Shown here: positions 1,268 to 50,736 of the stretch, piece by piece | How the letters are laid out: every line of letters starts with the position of its first letter | How positions within the stretch are numbered: the stretch's first letter is position 1 | Source: Parachlamydiales bacterium | GTDB taxonomy: Bacteria; Chlamydiota; Chlamydiia; Chlamydiales; Rhabdochlamydiaceae | DNA length: 64,000 nt | NCBI GenBank assembly: GCA_020053915.1 | Contig: JAGVMG010000043.1 | Location: 7,184 to 71,183, forward strand | Direction: 5' to 3' | Position numbers and translations under genes: made by a program | The notes under the pieces: model-generated | The model's input: only the letters and a program-made list of their open reading frames with translations | The model's database searches: none | Told to the model about the DNA's origin: nothing

Positions 1268-2341
1268 ATGATGAAAAAGAAAGTTTTTGTTTTAGTTATG
1301 TCTGTTCTCGCCATTATCAATAGTGGGCTACATGCTCTTGAATCGTTAGGTGATTTTCCTCTTGAAACCGTTATTCTGAAATTACCTGACAATAGCGAAT
1401 CAAATTGGAAAGAAATTGCTCGGCGTGTTGAAAAAAAAAGTGGGATAATTGAGACCATTCCTTTGAGCCAAACAGTTAAGAATTGGTTGGAATTAATTTG
1501 TATTCAGTATTTTGACAGCTCTGAGTGGGATAAGAAAGCGAGAAATTCGATTAGTTGTATTCTTGATAAGCTCCGAAAAGAAACTTTGAGATCATATCCT
1601 GAAAATACGGTGACTTGGAAAATCATTGAAAAAGACAAGCGCAGTGCCATTTATGAATGGATCTTACTTAAACCCTATAATAATATTCCAGTGCAACATG
1701 AGATAGCGCGAGGATTTTTAACAAAAACTGGCTTTCACCGCGTGGGGTATACAAAGAAAAATGAGCAGATGAATTCTGAAGAAAGAGAAAAATGGATTAA
1801 ATTGCTAAAAAATAATGCTTCCGTTGTCCCTTTTCGAGAAGGGGCCTGCATTGAGGGGTTATCAATGGTCGATAAACTTAAAGATTCGGTAGCTTTAGGC
1901 GCTAATTTTCAAAATTGGAAAATAATTGATAGCTTTGTCAACGCAAATGGATGTGCACTTAACACCTATATTCCTCCCATGGAAGATTGTCCAAGTGTAA
2001 CAGAAGGTCTTGAGACTTTTACAATGCCAACCACTGTTATTTCTTCTGTTACTAAATTCTTTGAGATAGAAAAAGAAGGCCTTAGAAGCAAAGTGGGGGT
2101 AGATGTTGAATGTCATGTCCTTGAACAATCTCCATCGGAAATAATCTATAGCTATTGTCACCCTAAAGATCATCTCCAGTGCAACGCTGTAGTTAGAACA
2201 TTTCTTACGGATCGTGGGTATTATTCCATAAGCTACAAACATGGTCTTATGGGGGAAATGTCGAAAGAGGAAATCTTAGAATGGAAAGAGAAGCTGAAAA
2301 CAATCTTGGTGGAGGTTCCTTCGATTAAAGACCGAGGTTAG
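1268..2341 (+). CDS. hypothetical protein, probable signal peptide
   Basis: Long ORF. ATG ATG at 1268/1271 is more likely than TTG at 1259. N-terminus MMKKKVFVLVMSVLAIINSGLHA. The stop overlaps the convergent ATPase stop (TTAG at 2338-2341). Confidence 0.55.
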   Translation: MMKKKVFVLVMSVLAIINSGLHALESLGDFPLETVILKLPDNSESNWKEIARRVEKKSGIIETIPLSQTVKNWLELICIQYFDSSEWDKKARNSISCILDKLRKETLRSYPENTVTWKIIEKDKRSAIYEWILLKPYNNIPVQHEIARGFLTKTGFHRVGYTKKNEQMNSEEREKWIKLLKNNASVVPFREGACIEGLSMVDKLKDSVALGANFQNWKIIDSFVNANGCALNTYIPPMEDCPSVTEGLETFTMPTTVISSVTKFFEIEKEGLRSKVGVDVECHVLEQSPSEIIYSYCHPKDHLQCNAVVRTFLTDRGYYSISYKHGLMGEMSKEEILEWKEKLKTILVEVPSIKDRG

Positions 2342-3897: not shown

Positions 3898-4057
3898 CTG
3901 GTAGACATGATATAGATGCTCATTTTCTTATGCACTGTTGTTAACCATGCTTTGTCTTCAGATGGGGATATCCGCGTCTTGAATTTTTCTCAGTATTTGG
4001 ATAAATTGGTTCAGTTGAGCCACTGTTTTTTTTTGGTTTTTTATGAAAGGTATATAG

Positions 4058-5107
4058 ATGCTGCAAAAAAAAGTTTGTCTGGCAAGTGATAATTGGCCTC
4101 CCGCTCATCCTTTAATCTTGAAGGCTGTCGTTGAGGCGAATGAGGGACATGCCCCTTCATATGGTTCTGATCCGTGGACTGAGGAGGCTCAACGGTTAAT
4201 TCAAGAAGCGTTTAAACGGCCGTGCAAGGTGTTCATGGTGCCAATTGGGACTGGAGCTAATGTTTTTGCGCTTAAACTCTCTTGTCGTGCCTATGAATCG
4301 ATTATTTGTACGGATATTGCCCATATTCATTATCAAGAATCTGGCGCTGCCGAAGCGGTTGTTGGTTGTAAGCTGTTAACTGTTCCTCATCAAGCGGGGA
4401 AGTTGACTGTAGATAGCGTGGTAAAAAAATTAAAATCTGAGAGGGCTTTTGGAAAACATTCTACCTCTCCTCGGGTTTTATCCATTACGCAGCCTACCGA
4501 AGTGGGAACTGTCTATAGTCTTGAAGAACTTAGGTCCTTATCCAAATTATGTAAGGAGGAGGGGTTGCTTCTTCATATTGACGGAAGTCGTCTGTATAAT
4601 GCAGCGGTAAGTCTGAATGTCAATTTGAGTGAGATTGTCGATGCTTCATCTGCTGATATTCTCTCGTTGGGAGGGACTAAAAATGGGTTGCTAGGCGCTG
4701 AATCCCTTGTCATTTTCAATTCTGATTTGCAAGAGGGGAGTGATCATCTACAAAAACAAACGCTGCAGTTACTCTCAAAAATGCGTTATCTTTCTGCGCA
4801 ATACATTCCCTTCTTCAAAACTGATTTGTGGCGGACCCTTGCTAGTGCAGCAAATAAAAAAGCACAAGAAATTGCATCTATCATAGAAACCATTCCTCAG
4901 CTTTCTTTAAGCTATCCCGTTGAAACCAATCAGATTTTTTTCAAAGTGCCAGCTTCTTGGATTCCACTCATCCAGGAGAACATTTTTTGCTACCTCTGGG
5001 ATAAGGAGAAAAATGAAATTCGATTCATTGCCTCATGGAATACCTCGGAGCAGGATGTGATCGATGTAAAATCGGCTCTTTTGGAGATCTCTCAAACTTT
5101 AGCTTAA
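4058..5107 (+). CDS. ltaE: low-specificity threonine aldolase / beta-eliminating lyase family (PLP enzyme)
   Basis: 349 aa. The overall pattern fits the family (SDNWPPAHP, SITQPTEVGTVYS, HIDGSRL, GGTKNG with the putative PLP lysine). Confidence 0.75.
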   Translation: MLQKKVCLASDNWPPAHPLILKAVVEANEGHAPSYGSDPWTEEAQRLIQEAFKRPCKVFMVPIGTGANVFALKLSCRAYESIICTDIAHIHYQESGAAEAVVGCKLLTVPHQAGKLTVDSVVKKLKSERAFGKHSTSPRVLSITQPTEVGTVYSLEELRSLSKLCKEEGLLLHIDGSRLYNAAVSLNVNLSEIVDASSADILSLGGTKNGLLGAESLVIFNSDLQEGSDHLQKQTLQLLSKMRYLSAQYIPFFKTDLWRTLASAANKKAQEIASIIETIPQLSLSYPVETNQIFFKVPASWIPLIQENIFCYLWDKEKNEIRFIASWNTSEQDVIDVKSALLEISQTLA

Positions 5108-14059: not shown

Positions 14060-16762
14060 ATGGCGTCGGGATCAAGTGGTGTGTGTGTATTTTCTCCTTT
14101 TCCTGTGGCCGGGGTATGGGAGGCGGATCGGAGGTGGCTTGTTGAAGTGGATTCGATAATAATGAAGGATGTTTCTCGTTATTTAGATGCAATAGATCCT
14201 GAAAAGGAATTGAGTCCAGAAGAACACCAAAAATATCTCAAAAAGTTCCACAAGTTAAAAACTGTATTGCAGGTGCGTGTTATCCGATGTGAAACCGAAG
14301 GTTCGCATTCTTTTCGCTTAATGGTTTTGGAAAGGCTTCAACATATCACAGCTCGCCATAAAGAGATGAAAAAAAAGATCCCTCATTTTTCTTATGTGCC
14401 TTCTAAAATGCCACTGGAATCAGACGTGGCTTGTATCAATGAAAATCAAACTACTTATAAAAATTTAGTTAATGATCCTAAAGCTCGTCCCTATTATTTA
14501 CTAAAGGAGTACGCACGTTTAAAAGGTTCTTTGTTGACATTGTATCATTCGTTAGCTGATGCCAATCCTTATCGCGAAGTAGTTAAGAATATGTGGGATG
14601 AGGTTCGAAAGATTCATCGTGCTCTGCCCTTTGTCGAACAGATGAAATTAAGGAAATCGATTCCGGATGTTACTTCTTACGGGATGCTGGTTTATTTTTG
14701 CAAAAACAATAAGATAAAAGGTTATGTTCCAAGAACAATTGAAGGATTAAAATCTCAAGTTGCTAAAATTGCAGCTTATGTTTTTACACATGCAGAAGCT
14801 GTGGAATGTGATTTTATTTATAACTCATCTTTCGAGGAGGCGGCAAGAAAATGGGAGGTTCTTAGGAATTTGTCTGAAGCTCAAGGGTTGTGTTTTTCTA
14901 TGGATGAAGATTCTTCTAAACGTTTGATTCAAAGAGGTTCAAGTTCTCAATTGTGTACAGAAAAGTTTGCTTTGGAAGATGGAGTTCTCAAAGGGAGCCG
15001 CATTTATTTAGATCGCAGAGAGGAGTCGGGAATCTTTGATCCGAAATGGGGGTGTTTGAAACGGGGCTTTAGAAAGGATGTGGCAGGGGATATCGAGTTT
15101 GTCGATCCAGTGGAGATCTTTCGTTGGGATTTTGATCGTGAAGGGTCGATGCGTGTGATTGAATTTGGTGATGAGCTTCGTTTGATGGAGCGTTATTTTG
15201 TACAGGGATATGGAAGGCTGAGACTTGCTGAAGGAACGTTAATTGATTTTTTACTGAATGCGAGCTTACGTTCAAGTGGTAACTTTTCGATTAAAGCGGT
15301 TTTGCAGCACCCTTTATTTAAGGCTAAGAAGGAGGAATTCATTTCGAGAGCAATTGGATTAAATGGTTGGGGATCGGTGAGGCTGCTTGATTTCTCTAAC
15401 CAGGGACTTTCGGATTTTCTCGATGAAATCGATGTGCATACAACCAATCCTCTGAAAATTCTTAAGGAGAGGGGCTCTCCTAACTTGATTATTCAAGTGG
15501 CGTATTTTGCTACATCGGAGAATGGGGGCAGGGAAATCATGGGCAAGTTAAGTGCATTATTTCCCGAGGCTTTCCAAGAGCTGGGTCCTGAGGTAATTAC
15601 TTCTGTATTAAGAGGGGGAATCACACATGGATATGATTTGTTGTTATTAAGAGAAGTTGTAGATCAATATGAGGCAAGTGGTAATAGCCTTTCTAGCTTT
15701 CATAGAGCTTGGATTGAAACGGCATTCGGTCAAAGACCGCATTGTGAGGTGACAGCATTTTCCGGAGACGAGCAGGGACTGATCGAGGAAACGGCGTACG
15801 TTGTCGGTAATCCCTACATCCATATTCCTCCGCGCACCAGGGTCACACCTGATCAATACACTGTCAACTTTTTGTGTTTAGAAGAGGAGCTTAAGGCTTC
15901 TGAATCATTCAATCGAATCGCAAGTTGGATTCTAGCCCATCCAGGAACAACAATCCATGTGTGGTATGATGGTGTTTTTCTAGTGCCTGATCTTGTTAAA
16001 AGTGCTCAAGGAAAAGTGTTAGAAAAATTAGGGTTAGAGACTTATGAGAACTTGCTATTTAAGGATGTCCGTGAGTTTGGCATTCTTCAAGAGGCGGACC
16101 AATTGTTTCCTCAGACAATCCCTTTAGCCTCTCGCTTACAACTGATACGCGCTTTAATTGCGGATCAAGTTTTGGAACAATGTAAAAGTGAATATTATGT
16201 GAGTACTACTCTCGATCGACAGCCTCTTTCTTCTCTCGAATTATTCGACCGCAAAACTGTGAGTTTATTAAATACGTGGGGGTTTGTCATTCCTGGACGA
16301 AAAGGGGAGTATGATAAGAGGGATACAAGTTTTCAGATTTGGAAGAGGAAGAAGAAGTTTTTGAATTCCAATTTTGACATTTTCGTTAATGGTTCCGTTA
16401 GGAGATGGCGTCGTCAACTTGAGGAGACAGAACAAACGAATGAATATTTGTTTCAAGCCATGTTAGCTGGTTTGTGTTTCAAACTCAGAATGTATCGAGG
16501 TTGTGATCTGCCTTATTCCGATCGACTCATTCCAGACCACAGTGGTTCGGCAGAAGAGAAAAAAGAACTTTTCGAGAGGTTGAGTGTGAGGAAAAAACTG
16601 AAATATATTACGTCTAATGATTTACCCAGCATAACAAAAACTATCGTTTTAAGACGGAACTTGAAAAACCTAGCTTTAGGCGAATTTTTAAAACAGGAAG
16701 CTCCAAAAAAGGCTTTGCCTGCCATTATGTCTAGCTCGACAGCGTCTTGTTCTAGCACATAG
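14060..16762 (+). CDS. large hypothetical protein, member of a local paralog family (shared N-terminal module)
   Basis: Long ORF. Preferred start is ATG 14060, 7 nt after GGAG (MASGSSGV). The N-terminal ~200 aa resemble those of the 18861 and 24750 genes (YLKKFHKLKTVL motif and others). Confidence 0.7.
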   Translation: MASGSSGVCVFSPFPVAGVWEADRRWLVEVDSIIMKDVSRYLDAIDPEKELSPEEHQKYLKKFHKLKTVLQVRVIRCETEGSHSFRLMVLERLQHITARHKEMKKKIPHFSYVPSKMPLESDVACINENQTTYKNLVNDPKARPYYLLKEYARLKGSLLTLYHSLADANPYREVVKNMWDEVRKIHRALPFVEQMKLRKSIPDVTSYGMLVYFCKNNKIKGYVPRTIEGLKSQVAKIAAYVFTHAEAVECDFIYNSSFEEAARKWEVLRNLSEAQGLCFSMDEDSSKRLIQRGSSSQLCTEKFALEDGVLKGSRIYLDRREESGIFDPKWGCLKRGFRKDVAGDIEFVDPVEIFRWDFDREGSMRVIEFGDELRLMERYFVQGYGRLRLAEGTLIDFLLNASLRSSGNFSIKAVLQHPLFKAKKEEFISRAIGLNGWGSVRLLDFSNQGLSDFLDEIDVHTTNPLKILKERGSPNLIIQVAYFATSENGGREIMGKLSALFPEAFQELGPEVITSVLRGGITHGYDLLLLREVVDQYEASGNSLSSFHRAWIETAFGQRPHCEVTAFSGDEQGLIEETAYVVGNPYIHIPPRTRVTPDQYTVNFLCLEEELKASESFNRIASWILAHPGTTIHVWYDGVFLVPDLVKSAQGKVLEKLGLETYENLLFKDVREFGILQEADQLFPQTIPLASRLQLIRALIADQVLEQCKSEYYVSTTLDRQPLSSLELFDRKTVSLLNTWGFVIPGRKGEYDKRDTSFQIWKRKKKFLNSNFDIFVNGSVRRWRRQLEETEQTNEYLFQAMLAGLCFKLRMYRGCDLPYSDRLIPDHSGSAEEKKELFERLSVRKKLKYITSNDLPSITKTIVLRRNLKNLALGEFLKQEAPKKALPAIMSSSTASCSST

Positions 16763-38042: not shown

Positions 38043-38098
38043 TTTTTTTGAAGTTGCCTTTTTTTCTTTCGATGGAGTACTCTGTTCTTTCTTTCTGT

Positions 38099-38182
38099 GC
38101 CGATGTGGCGGAATTGGTAGACGCGGTAGATTCAAAATCTTCTTCTAGCAATAGAGTGCTGGTTCGAGTCCAGTCTTCGGCA
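38099..38182 (+). tRNA. tRNA-Leu (anticodon CAA)
   Basis: Hand fold. GCCGATG...CTTCGGC acceptor, D arm GGCGGAATTGGTAGACGCG, loop TTCAAAA, long variable arm, T arm GCTGG-TTCGAGT-CCAGT. There are U-U mismatches at acceptor pair 6:67 and in the anticodon stem. Confidence 0.85.
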
Positions 38183-38189
38183 TCCTTAA

Positions 38190-46974: not shown

Positions 46975-47568
46975 TTAGGCTGCTGCTGCTGCAGGTGTAG
47001 CCGGAGCTGGAGCTGGTGCCGCAGCTTTTTTTGCATCGCTAACTTTTTCAAACGCTTTTGTAAAAGTCTTCCCTAGGATCTCTTTTTTCAGAGCATCTTT
47101 AGCTTTAAAGCTGCTTTTTTTTCTGTTTGGATGAGCTGCTTTAAAAGCAGTTTTTAACTCGTCTTGATCTTTTGCATTGAGCTTAGCGTAAGCTGCAGCT
47201 GCATCAGCTTTTGTTGGTTTTGCTTCCATTACTGCTTTGAATGCTTCAAAAGAATCTGCGGCAGGAGCAGCTGGTGCTGCTGGAGCTGCTGGAGTTTCTG
47301 GTTGCTTGTTGAAGCAGCATCTAAAGATTGCAAATGCAACTGCTGTTAAGGTAACAGAAACCGTAGCGATGATCACGCCGGTTTGATTTTCTTGAACAAA
47401 GTTGGAGAGGCTTTGGAAATAAGGTTGAGCGAATGCGTAGACTTTTTGACCTAAATCTGAAAGATAAGCGCCGGTTGCAGTGACTGTTCTTCCGATCCAG
47501 TCCCCTGCGTTAGATGCAAAGGTACCGATTGATTGGCAGCAGTTGGAAAGAGTTTCTTGAATTCTCAT
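46975..47568 (-). CDS. membrane protein with Ala/Pro-rich low-complexity and Lys-rich C-terminal region
   Basis: Start ATG 47568 after AGGAGG. One TM (GVIIATVSVTLTAVAFAIF), then PAAPAAPAAPAA and a C-terminal AAPAPAPATPAAAAA. Confidence 0.6.
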   Translation of the reverse strand: MRIQETLSNCCQSIGTFASNAGDWIGRTVTATGAYLSDLGQKVYAFAQPYFQSLSNFVQENQTGVIIATVSVTLTAVAFAIFRCCFNKQPETPAAPAAPAAPAADSFEAFKAVMEAKPTKADAAAAYAKLNAKDQDELKTAFKAAHPNRKKSSFKAKDALKKEILGKTFTKAFEKVSDAKKAAAPAPAPATPAAAAA

Positions 47569-47714
47569 AGTGACCTCCTGAATAGAGTTAAATTTCTCAA
47601 GGGGACTTCCCTGTTTTGAAAACATTTATGTATTATACTGGTATCCTTTTTTTTATAAAGACCTGATTAAGTTTTTATAAATTAAAAATTATTTTCTTTA
47701 TGCCTTTCCGAGAG

Positions 47715-47788: not shown

Positions 47789-47902
47789 CAATTCAAACGC
47801 TGTTTTGCGCGTTTTGGACACAGAATCATTAAGATTTTCTTGCGTCGCAGGAAGCGATGTCTTAACATGGGGGCCTCTCTTTACTAAAGAAGGATAAATA
47901 AT

Positions 47903-48998
47903 ATGAACGACAACGCTCAAGATTTGTTAAAAAGCATTGAAAATCGCCTGCTTCACATGTGGAGGTATCTTTAGCTTAGAGGAAAAAGAGAAACGCGTAT
48001 CAGAGCTAGAGCAAAAGATGGAGCATCCCGGTTTCTGGGATGATAATACAGCTGCGCAGAAAGTGATTTCTGAGGTCAACCAGCTTAAAGAGTGGACTCA
48101 TTCCTATCGAGATTTGAAAAATCGGTTTGAAAGTGTCAAAGAACTGTTGCCCGAAGTAGATGAGGCAAGCGATCAACTCTTTTTTCACCAGTTGATCGAT
48201 GAGCTGCACAAAGTGGACAAGGCTCTTTCTGAGATCGAAATGCGCAAGATGCTTTCCGGAGAACTGGATCCGAAAAATTGCTTTTTGAGTATCAATGCGG
48301 GCGCCGGGGGAACAGAGGCGTGCGATTGGGCGCTTATGCTCTCGCGTATGTATCAGCGCTGGGCTGCCAAGCGGAACTGGAAAGTCGAAATTCTCGATTC
48401 TGTGGATGGAGATGTGGCTGGGTTTAAGAGCATCACGTTCAAAATCTCGGGACCGTATGCTTATGGGTATTGTAAGGTAGAGAGGGGCGTGCATCGGTTG
48501 GTGCGTATTTCTCCTTTTGATAGCAATGCCAAGCGCCACACGAGCTTTGCCTCCGTAGACATCACCCCGGAAATTGACGATGATATTTTAATCGATATTC
48601 GTCCTGAAGATGTGCGTGTGGACACCTATCGCGCATCGGGAGCCGGTGGTCAGCACGTGAACAAAACCGATTCGGCTGTTCGCGTGACTCATGAATCTTC
48701 AGGGATCATTGTCTCCTGTCAAAGTGAACGCAGTCAGATCCAAAACAGGGAAACTTGCTTTAAAATGTTGCGCGCTAAACTTTATGAAAAAGAGCTAATG
48801 GAGCGAGAATCGAAGCTCAAAGAAATTTCCGGCGAGAAGAAAGAAATCGCATGGGGATCACAAATTCGGAACTATGTTTTCCAGCCCTATACTCTTGTCA
48901 AAGATACGCGAACGAAGTATGAAGTGGGAAATGTGGAAGATGTGATGGATGGAAATTTAGATGGCTTTATCAATGCATATTTAAAGGAGTTTGGTTAA
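47903..48998 (+). CDS. prfB: peptide chain release factor 2, programmed +1 ribosomal frameshift
   Basis: ORF0 runs from ATG 47903 to TAG 47972-47974 ([23 protein letters not shown]). The +1 frame continues SLEEKEKRV.... It carries the RF2-specific SPF motif (RISPFDS) and GGQ (GAGGQHVN). The site GGAGG-TAT-CTT-TAG-C mirrors the E. coli site AGGGGG-TAT-CTT-TGA-C. Confidence 0.9.
47961..47975 (+). promoter_or_regulatory. prfB recoding site (internal SD-like GGAGG, slippery CTT, in-frame TAG)
   Basis: GGAGG at 47961-47965, 3-nt spacer, CTT at 47969-47971, TAG at 47972-47974, then C. Confidence 0.85.
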
Positions 48999-49003
48999 CC
49001 GCT

Positions 49004-49501
49004 ATGTCAGAACCTTTAGGCTTTGATATCCGCTATACGCATATTAGTGATGCGCCCTATGTTCTCGAATGGCTGAAAGAGCCCGCAGTGCAACAGTGGT
49101 TTCCTGTCAGTTTGGATAAAGAAATTGAAGATGCAGTGCAATGCTGGGTGGGCTTTTGTAAGTTTAATTCGAGCTTAACGGCGACGATCGATGGAGTTCC
49201 TGTGGGCATCGGCACCCTTTTTCTCATGCCCTATCGCAAGGTTTCCCACCATTGCTTATTTAAACTGCTCGTCGATCCTGCACACCAGAGAAAAGGAGTA
49301 GGAAGAGCGCTGCTAAAAAATTTGAAGCATTTAGCAAAAAATGGATTTCGCCTTGAGCTCATGCATATCGAGATTTTTGATGGTAACCCGATCGAGTCGT
49401 TGCTTTTGCAATTCGATTTTCATGAATATGGCCGGCAAGCTCACTTTGTCAAAGACAAAGAGCAGTACCTCGGTCGGATTCTTTACGAAAGCTATTTATA
49501 G
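49004..49501 (+). CDS. GNAT family N-acetyltransferase
   Basis: QRKGVGRALLKNL (motif A). 165 aa. Confidence 0.8.
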   Translation: MSEPLGFDIRYTHISDAPYVLEWLKEPAVQQWFPVSLDKEIEDAVQCWVGFCKFNSSLTATIDGVPVGIGTLFLMPYRKVSHHCLFKLLVDPAHQRKGVGRALLKNLKHLAKNGFRLELMHIEIFDGNPIESLLLQFDFHEYGRQAHFVKDKEQYLGRILYESYL

Positions 49502-49511
49502 AGGCCTTAAG

Positions 49512-50033
49512 ATGGCAGAACATAGACCTGAATTGGCGTTTCGCATTTCTTCTCCTGAGGATGCTCCTCATCTCATTAAGTGGCTTTCTGACCCCAGCAT
49601 TTTGCGCTGGTTTCCGATGTTCGATGCGAGAGAGATTGAGGATTCTGTACGGATTTGGCTCGGCTATGCGCGCATTGGAGCAAATCTGACCGTGGAATAC
49701 AATGGAGTCCCGTGCGGCATGGCAAATCTCTACATCCAGCCTTACAAAAAACTAGCGCATACGTGTTTATTTGCCATCATTGTCCAAGACGAGTATCGAG
49801 GCAAAGGGATTGGCAGAGCGTTATTAGAGGAGCTCATTAAACTTGCGCAGAACAAATTTCAGATTGAGGTGTTGCATTTGGAAGTTTATGAGGGCAACCC
49901 TGCAAAAAAACTCTATGAGCGTTTTGGATTTACAGAGTTTGGACGACAGAGCCGTTTCATTAAAGACGGTGGAAAATATACAGCTAAAATTTTAATGCAG
50001 AAAAAGTTAGGGACATATGGCAGGACACAGTAA
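49512..50033 (+). CDS. GNAT family N-acetyltransferase (tandem paralog)
   Basis: Start ATG 49512. YRGKGIGRALLEEL and LYERFGF. Collinear with the preceding gene (APYVLEWLKEPAVQQWFPV versus APHLIKWLSDPSILRWFPM). Confidence 0.8.
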   Translation: MAEHRPELAFRISSPEDAPHLIKWLSDPSILRWFPMFDAREIEDSVRIWLGYARIGANLTVEYNGVPCGMANLYIQPYKKLAHTCLFAIIVQDEYRGKGIGRALLEELIKLAQNKFQIEVLHLEVYEGNPAKKLYERFGFTEFGRQSRFIKDGGKYTAKILMQKKLGTYGRTQ

Positions 50034-50736
50034 ATGGGCCAACATTAAGCATCGAAAAGGACGGGCAGATGCAGTCAAAGGCAAGATGTTTTCCCGCATC
50101 ACAAAAGAGATCATCAGCGCGGTTAAACAAGGCGGACCGGATCCCAAATCCAACTCTAAACTTCGTCTCGTGCTGCAAAAAGCGCGCATTGCAAACATGC
50201 CGAACGATAATATTGAGCGCAATATCAAGAAAGCAAGTAGTGCAGACCAGGCAGATTTCACTGAAACGACCTATGAGCTTTACGGATATGGCGGAGTAGG
50301 AATTCTTGTCGAAATAATGACCGATAATCGCAATCGAGCGTCATCGGACATGCGCATTGCGACAAATAAAAAAGGGGGAACTATTGCAACCCCTGGTGCT
50401 GTCGCTTTTAATTTTGATCGGAAAGGGGTCATTCAAGTTTTGAAAAAAAATGCGGTGGAAGACGAGCTTTTTTTAATTGCTACAGAAGCGGGCGCCGAAG
50501 ATTTTGATGTCGCAGACGATCTTTATATCATTACGACGCCGTCTGATCAGCTCTTTCAAGTAAAAGATAAATTGGATGAAAAGGGGATTGTCAGCGAAGA
50601 GGCAGAGCTCCAAATGATTCCTAAAGTGTATGTCGAATGCGATCCAGAAGCTCAGAAATCGAATCTAGAGCTGATAGACTACCTCGAGGCATTAGATGAT
50701 GTCGATGTCGTCTATCACAACATGAAAATGGAGTGA
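50017..50736 (+). CDS. yebC: YebC/PmpR family DNA-binding regulator
   Basis: MAGHSKWANIKHRKG N-terminus. 17-nt overlap with the upstream GNAT gene. Confidence 0.9.
   Translation: MAGHSKWANIKHRKGRADAVKGKMFSRITKEIISAVKQGGPDPKSNSKLRLVLQKARIANMPNDNIERNIKKASSADQADFTETTYELYGYGGVGILVEIMTDNRNRASSDMRIATNKKGGTIATPGAVAFNFDRKGVIQVLKKNAVEDELFLIATEAGAEDFDVADDLYIITTPSDQLFQVKDKLDEKGIVSEEAELQMIPKVYVECDPEAQKSNLELIDYLEALDDVDVVYHNMKME

Follow-up and report, generated by a model that had tools for sequence, protein, structure and literature searches.

The prfB gene in the window studied here (the whole stretch of 64,000 nucleotides of chlamydial DNA, with a G+C content of 45%) carries a +1 frameshift site of classical architecture in which the zero-frame stop codon is TAG. 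Autoregulation by recoding has its textbook case in the prfB frameshift, whose logic needs an internal stop codon that is read by RF2; UAG is read by RF1 only and not by RF2. As judged from its sequence, the site has all the structural marks of the prfB +1 frameshift family: ORF0 is short, its stop codon directly follows CUU (CUU U), and the RF2 body continues in the +1 frame with homology across the junction. It falls outside the definition of the autoregulatory loop, which has a zero-frame stop readable by RF2 (UGA or UAA) where this gene has TAG at 47972-47974. We consider it likely that the site works as a functional classical-type prfB +1 frameshift in competition with RF1, and that the self-feedback of RF2 has been lost or replaced by a dependence on RF1. 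The original prediction of a prfB +1 frameshift site with UAG was borne out, and the site recurs in independent assemblies.

Architecture of the shift site and of the encoded RF2

ORF0 of prfB lies on the forward strand at 47903-47974, extends over 23 sense codons from the ATG at 47903 to the in-frame TAG at 47972-47974, and encodes the N-terminal helix of RF2. Two Shine-Dalgarno (SD)-like elements can be read from the same strand: AAGGA at 47890-47894, 8 nt 5' of the ORF0 start codon, and an internal GGAGG at 47961-47965, the putative frameshift stimulator, 3 nt 5' of CUU. The 3' end of ORF0 reads ATG TGG AGG TAT CTT TAG C, and within it the shift cassette TAT CTT TAG C (47966-47975, forward strand) comprises the E-site UAU (47966-47968), the slippery P-site CUU (47969-47971), the zero-frame UAG and a +4 C (47975). 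The +1-frame body (47973-48998, forward strand) opens with AGC (Ser), reads on as SLEEKEKRV, and covers RF2 residues 24-364 and the TAA stop at 48996-48998; the last two bases of the TAG are the first two bases of the Ser codon. The +4 C, a weak termination context, is kept in all members of the TAG clade described below, although the third position of the Ser codon is free to vary. No stimulatory RNA structure was predicted at the shift site (fold z-score 0.84).

Joining ORF0 to the body yields a protein of 364 residues that has the features of a complete RF2. It scored 517.4 bits against the NCBIfam model TIGR00020 (prfB; curated cut-off 370 bits), with an alignment over residues 10-361 that spans the junction, and 270 and 265 bits against two RF1 models, below their cut-offs of 400 and 423. 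Solved RF2 chains align with the joined protein from residue 9, placing ...RYL-S-LEEKE opposite ...GSL-D-LESKE. The SPF motif (residues 203-205) is encoded at 48510-48518 and the GGQ motif (residues 248-250) at 48645-48653, both on the forward strand. The GGTEACDW segment, the SPF loop, RHTSFA and the neighbouring decoding segments are the same in the five TAG sequences as in 81 chlamydial TGA or TAA relatives, and only two substitutions are exclusive to the TAG clade: D to S at the junction, and A346D, which lies near the C-terminus and far from the decoding site. The E167K change in RF2 gives omnipotence; the residue that we take, by hand alignment, to be the counterpart of E. coli E167 is Asp and hence still acidic. 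Given the identity of the decoding segments with those of 81 relatives, nothing suggests a changed specificity, and the stop-codon specificity of RF2 in the TAG clade is probably unaltered. This agrees with the original statement, itself established knowledge, that RF2 should not read UAG.

Recurrence and distribution of the TAG site

Beyond the window, TAG stands at the prfB shift site in eight to nine further assemblies or contigs, which stem from several projects and SRA runs. Among them are the Logan contig L164 (SRR31513930), which is 99.97% identical to the window over 12.7 kb and has an identical prfB including the TAG; the MAGs L001 (JAIELY010000001.1) and L002 (CAYWSY010000035.1), both GTDB species representatives; the Logan contigs L155-L158, which come from four further SRA runs and belong to the L001 lineage; and the Logan contig L159, from a fifth further run. 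An exact look-up of the 326-aa and 353-aa RF2 products of the window returned no match, although L164 (prfB at 4002-4982) encodes an identical prfB, which indicates that the look-up index is incomplete for prfB; L164 itself was recovered through an exact look-up of the neighbouring YebC protein.

The frameshift site was found in 78 of 80 chlamydial prfB loci from GTDB representatives. The alignment of prfB 5' regions from related chlamydiae that the original prediction had proposed gives TGA in 76 of these 78 informative loci (ATG NNG AGG TAT CTT TGA C) and TAG in L001 and L002 only, with (G)GAGG invariant at the same spacing in all 78. Compared with the other 76 chlamydial prfB loci, the 19-nt cassette of the window is homologous and differs solely in the stop codon, so the site did not arise by chance. 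At the protein level, 24 sequences among the best 120 matches cover the junction, and all have Asp there (TGA) except P0001, which is the product of L001. The nearest further relatives, P0010 and P0018 (83% identity), were placed outside the TAG clade since they have TGA, and L160 and L161 likewise have TGA at the shift site. A metagenome scan with ATGNNGAGGTATCTTTARC gave 74 matches, of which 69 were chance matches outside prfB and five were TAA prfB sites; a TAG prfB site was found in none of the 74. The five TAA genes, all of them chlamydial (L089, L110, L112, L136 and L142), have CTT TAA C as their shift sequence.

A neighbour-joining tree built from 86 chlamydial RF2 sequences groups the TAG genes into a single clade, ((L002, L159), (window, (L001, L155))), whose sister group contains the TGA genes L020, L017, L008 and L019 together with the TAA genes L089 and L112; the remaining TAA genes are scattered across the tree. 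On this tree, the TAG genes represent a small clade of Rhabdochlamydiaceae-related environmental chlamydiae with four lineages. The simplest history of the stop codon is probably UGA to UAA to UAG, by two transitions, and the junction codon would probably have passed along that route from GAC (Asp) through AAC (Asn) to AGC (Ser). It is plausible that the TAA sites of L089 and L112, by their appearance, resemble the intermediate between TGA and TAG.

Between the four TAG lineages, identity in prfB DNA is only 74-84%, with differences at 40-56% of third codon positions. The two closest lineages show a dN of 0.03 and a dS of 1.7, while dS is saturated for the other pairs. This pattern shows strong purifying selection on prfB in the clade, unlike that of a pseudogene, and the fixation of TAG across a deep clade of four lineages points to an old state. 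The block ATGTGGAGGTATCTT-TAG-C is invariant throughout the clade, including the silent third positions of its Arg, Tyr and Leu codons, and the codons beside it vary at synonymous sites; the recoding signals, ATGTGGAGGTATCTT and the +4 C, are thus under selection. With four lineages, selection for TAG itself is inseparable from constraint on the junction residue.

As to the surroundings of the gene, two GNAT acetyltransferase genes and then a YebC/TACO1 gene lie 3' of prfB (49004-50736, forward strand), and the order prfB-GNAT-GNAT-YebC is kept in L155, L002, L160, L161 and L164. At 230 aa, the mechanical ORF 49341-50033 exceeds its orthologues in length (172-173 aa), which puts its true start probably near 49515. 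Divergent from prfB, at 46975-47625 on the reverse strand, lies a gene whose product, a low-complexity protein rich in Ala and Pro (PAAPAAPAAPAA..., ...APAPAPATPAAAAA), has no Pfam match and evolves fast: its identity is 87% in L155 and only 46% in L002. In one Parachlamydia-like MAG (L066), a short GGQ-domain match just upstream of prfB (1774-2022, reverse strand; 43% identity to RF1 residues 205-294) is probably an ArfB-like rescue factor.

UAG as an ordinary stop codon and the search for RF1

Among the window ORFs that reach 100 codons and do not overlap, TAG is the stop codon of 11 out of 61 (about 18%); in the other TAG-clade loci it ends 21% of such ORFs, against 22-23% in other chlamydial loci; the TAG stops at 1218-1220 and 16760-16762, cited in the original prediction, do end ORFs of the window. 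Between orthologues, TAG swaps with TAA and TGA at the identical C-terminal position. The stop of the YebC gene is TGA in the window and TAG in L155 and L002; that of the RNase E/G gene is TAA in the window and TAG in L155; and that of the first GNAT gene is TAG in the window and L155, TGA in L002 and TAA in L008. Reassignment of the UAG codon, already held to be unlikely on the strength of TAG stops in the window, was ruled out, since TAG ends conserved genes where their orthologues stop. Such ordinary use of TAG means that something terminates efficiently at UAG, and from this usage we infer that the factor is RF1, present and canonical in the clade.

Stop usage in the clade was calculated from the window genes and the loci L155, L002 and L159. 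UAA makes up about half of all stops. The TGA share is 34% (30/89) in the TAG clade vs. 26% (132/514) in other chlamydial loci, a difference that is not significant (Fisher p = 0.12); the direction of this non-significant excess would fit a higher demand for RF2 favouring the loss of RF2 self-repression. The difference in G+C between the TAG clade and its relatives is not significant either.

Searches for prfA were made along several routes. By tblastn with an approximate E. coli RF1 query, no prfA was detected in the window or in 160 loci. A C. trachomatis RF1 probe, 99% identical to P0121, matched chlamydial RF1s, none of them traceable to the TAG clade, and a search started from P0208 led to another family-level group, with no RF1 match on the complete chromosomes closest to the clade. 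The rpmE-prfA-prmC-ffh-rpsP-trmD-rplS neighbourhood is not in the window, and no prfA lies in the fetched loci. RF1 from other environmental chlamydiae has a normal PET motif and a conserved rpmE-prfA-prmC-ffh context. In a related environmental chlamydial MAG (L162, JAFEGL010000045.1, 9674-14710), the rpmE-prfA-prmC-ffh-rpsP-trmD-rplS cluster holds RF1, an order that is presumably the same in Chlamydia trachomatis.

Probable frameshifting in competition with RF1

In one Rhabdochlamydiaceae-related clade the zero-frame stop changed from UGA to UAG. If the site functions as proposed, the ribosome would still pause with tRNA-Leu(GAG) on the P-site CUU and UAG in the A site and slip to UUU, and the competitor of slippage would be RF1 instead of RF2. 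RF2 would then no longer repress its own synthesis at the shift step, and its yield would depend on how strong the shift signals are and on the activity of RF1 at the weak UAG-C, a context that would favour a high basal shift rate. A tRNA-Leu(GAG) that reads CUU, and would re-pair with UUU, was predicted by ARAGORN and Rfam at 21889-21974 on the forward strand, and the role of this tRNA at CUU has been described (PMC13245932). The Rfam scan of the window returned three tRNAs and nothing else, the other two being tRNA-Arg(TCG) at 26473-26546 and tRNA-Leu(CAA) at 38098-38185. With TAGA or TAGU in place of TGAC at the E. coli RF2 shift site, frameshifting continues; termination relative to frameshifting has a ratio of 1.3-1.4, which becomes about ten-fold lower in RF1 mutants; UAGC is a weak stop signal (PMC2680264). 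By analogy with these reporters, competition with RF1 would be the expected behaviour in the clade, and we infer that frameshifting occurs at the window site and that RF1 titrates it. Overproduction of RF2 is reported to be toxic in B. subtilis (PMC12421855), so that a loss of feedback should carry a cost, which speaks against the proposal.

Alternative explanations

A sequencing or assembly error, or a decaying pseudogene, has next to no chance of accounting for the TAG, as the same codon recurs in no fewer than nine other assemblies or contigs of separate projects and SRA runs, and prfB, with a dN/dS of about 0.02 that bespeaks strong purifying selection, contains no other disruptions; error and artefact appear excluded for practical purposes. 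RF2 could also be made without any frameshift, by initiation in the +1 frame at TTG 47937 or at ATG 48018 (Met39), ORF0 being a leader peptide or a vestige. In both the window and L001 the +1 frame is indeed open as far back as TTG 47937, and automatic gene callers give products of 326 and 353 aa, but we regard this explanation as highly improbable. The TTG, whose use as a frameshift-free start had been put forward as a possible refutation, is lacking in L002 and L159, whose +1 ORF does not open before Met39. TTG 47937 and ATG 48018 are not accompanied by an SD-like element, whereas the ORF0 ATG has one in all four lineages (AAGGA or GAGGA also in L001, L002 and L159). ORF0, homologous to the RF2 N-terminus, is kept as a frame-0 protein across the clade (it begins MND/E-N/Q) while its third codon positions vary, and the SD-UAU-CUU cassette does not vary even at positions that could change synonymously. 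The frame-0 conservation, the invariant cassette, the upstream SD and the loss of the TTG together suggest that ribosomes start at ORF0 and shift +1 at CUU-U as in the canonical system. Autoregulation might yet have been kept if the RF2 of the clade had come to read UAG, possibly once RF1 had been lost. The searches of the window, the fetched loci and the RF1 matches found no RF1 gene for the clade, which would suit this idea, but very little credence can be given to it: all the RF2 decoding segments are identical to those of TGA and TAA relatives, the position of E167 remains acidic, A346D is C-terminal and distant from the decoding site, and RF1 with a normal PET motif occurs in the rpmE-prfA-prmC cluster of other environmental chlamydiae. 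Engineered UAG-reading RF2 variants do exist, but omnipotent ones are reported to be toxic (PMC13245932, PMC7530605).

Frameshifting in competition with RF1 may have two outcomes, a regulatory use of the RF1 dependence or a tolerated loss of control. One possibility, which we put forward tentatively, is an adaptive rewiring in which RF1 activity governs RF2 synthesis, scarce RF1 leading to more shifting at UAG-C and thereby to more RF2. As RF1 and RF2 share UAA, total termination capacity would then be held steady, and this would be the first natural case of a recoding site by which one class-I release factor controls how much of its counterpart is translated; prfA might conceivably be under a reciprocal control. 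The site may instead be a neutral relic, a proposal that also deserves only a minority share of belief, in which UAG serves only as an A-site codon that is decoded slowly, shifting is in effect constitutive and regulation is lost. The frameshift would then persist only because its removal needs a precise 1-nt deletion, and RF1 would compete, but its variation would have no physiological role. About 30% of bacteria have no prfB frameshift, so that loss of autoregulation is tolerated (PMC12421855), and UAGC is a weak signal (PMC2680264); stop usage and G+C that do not differ significantly from those of relatives, and the lack of a predicted extra RNA structure at the site, fit a relic as well. 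Against it, the absence of TAG from 8,164 surveyed motifs and the 1.4% share of TAA imply that a stop not specific to RF2 is selected against in most bacteria, and in the four lineages TAG has outlasted a divergence that saturates synonymous sites. The relic has its mechanism in common with the RF1-competition explanation and differs from it only on adaptiveness.

Comparison with known systems

A natural prfB shift site with TAG has apparently not been reported before. In a 2025 mBio survey of 8,164 prfB motifs, TGA accounted for 98.6%, TAA for 1.4% and TAG for none, and the absence of TAG served as the main argument for universal RF2 autoregulation by the motif (PMC12421855); the GeneTack consensus from 428 prfB genes is YTT_TRA_C (PMC3711429). 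These two compilations agree with the earlier expectation that the site was not already catalogued, and no report of a natural TAG prfB site was found in the full-text literature on prfB or RF2 frameshifting with UAG or in chlamydiae. The TAG clade would thus be a natural counter-example to universal RF2 autoregulation, with the shift signals kept and an RF1-specific stop. It makes testable whether RF2 self-feedback is dispensable while the frameshift is retained, and whether release-factor balance can be achieved by cross-control, RF1 setting RF2. Search patterns that demand CTTTGA or YTT_TRA miss TAG-site genes or annotate them as truncated. The NCBI pipeline annotated the L001 gene as a joined RF2 of 364 aa (P0001), leaving the UAG unremarked, and most other gene callers give a product of 326 aa starting at Met39.

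The canonical E. coli site, CUU AGG GGG UAU CUU UGA C, has the same short ORF0, SD element 3 nt before UAU CUU, stop codon followed by C, and RF2 body in the +1 frame, and each of the 5,426 complete E. coli genomes has its DNA form CTT AGG GGG TAT CTT TGA C in prfB. The window shares its spacing with E. coli and with the 76 chlamydial relatives, and the match to E. coli foreseen in the original prediction is exact. The window differs from the canonical site in having UAG, which is RF1-specific, instead of UGA, and Ser instead of Asp at the junction, and the sensing step would be unavailable to RF2. The canonical frameshift occurs in about 70-80% of bacteria.

Natural TAA variants of prfB depart from TGA at the same position as the TAG clade and are sporadic in several lineages. 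They are still readable by RF2 and keep autoregulation at least partly, and in chlamydiae they are scattered tips, whereas TAG is fixed in a deep clade. RF2 frameshift sites with UAG were reportedly used as in vivo RF1 termination assays by Curran and Yarus in 1989 and by Poole et al. in 1995. Engineered E. coli RF2 sites with UAG, as employed in such assays, share this architecture, and their +1 shift continues and competes with RF1 (PMC2680264), but they are laboratory reporters carrying TAGA or TAGU, whereas here TAGC stands in a native essential gene of a chlamydia. Frameshift-free prfB genes, as in Actinomycetota and Mycoplasmatota (PMC12421855), resemble those of the TAG clade in that RF2 would not be limited by RF2-dependent termination in its own mRNA. 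Those lineages have dropped the recoding site, whereas the TAG clade keeps every signal and has changed the stop codon alone.
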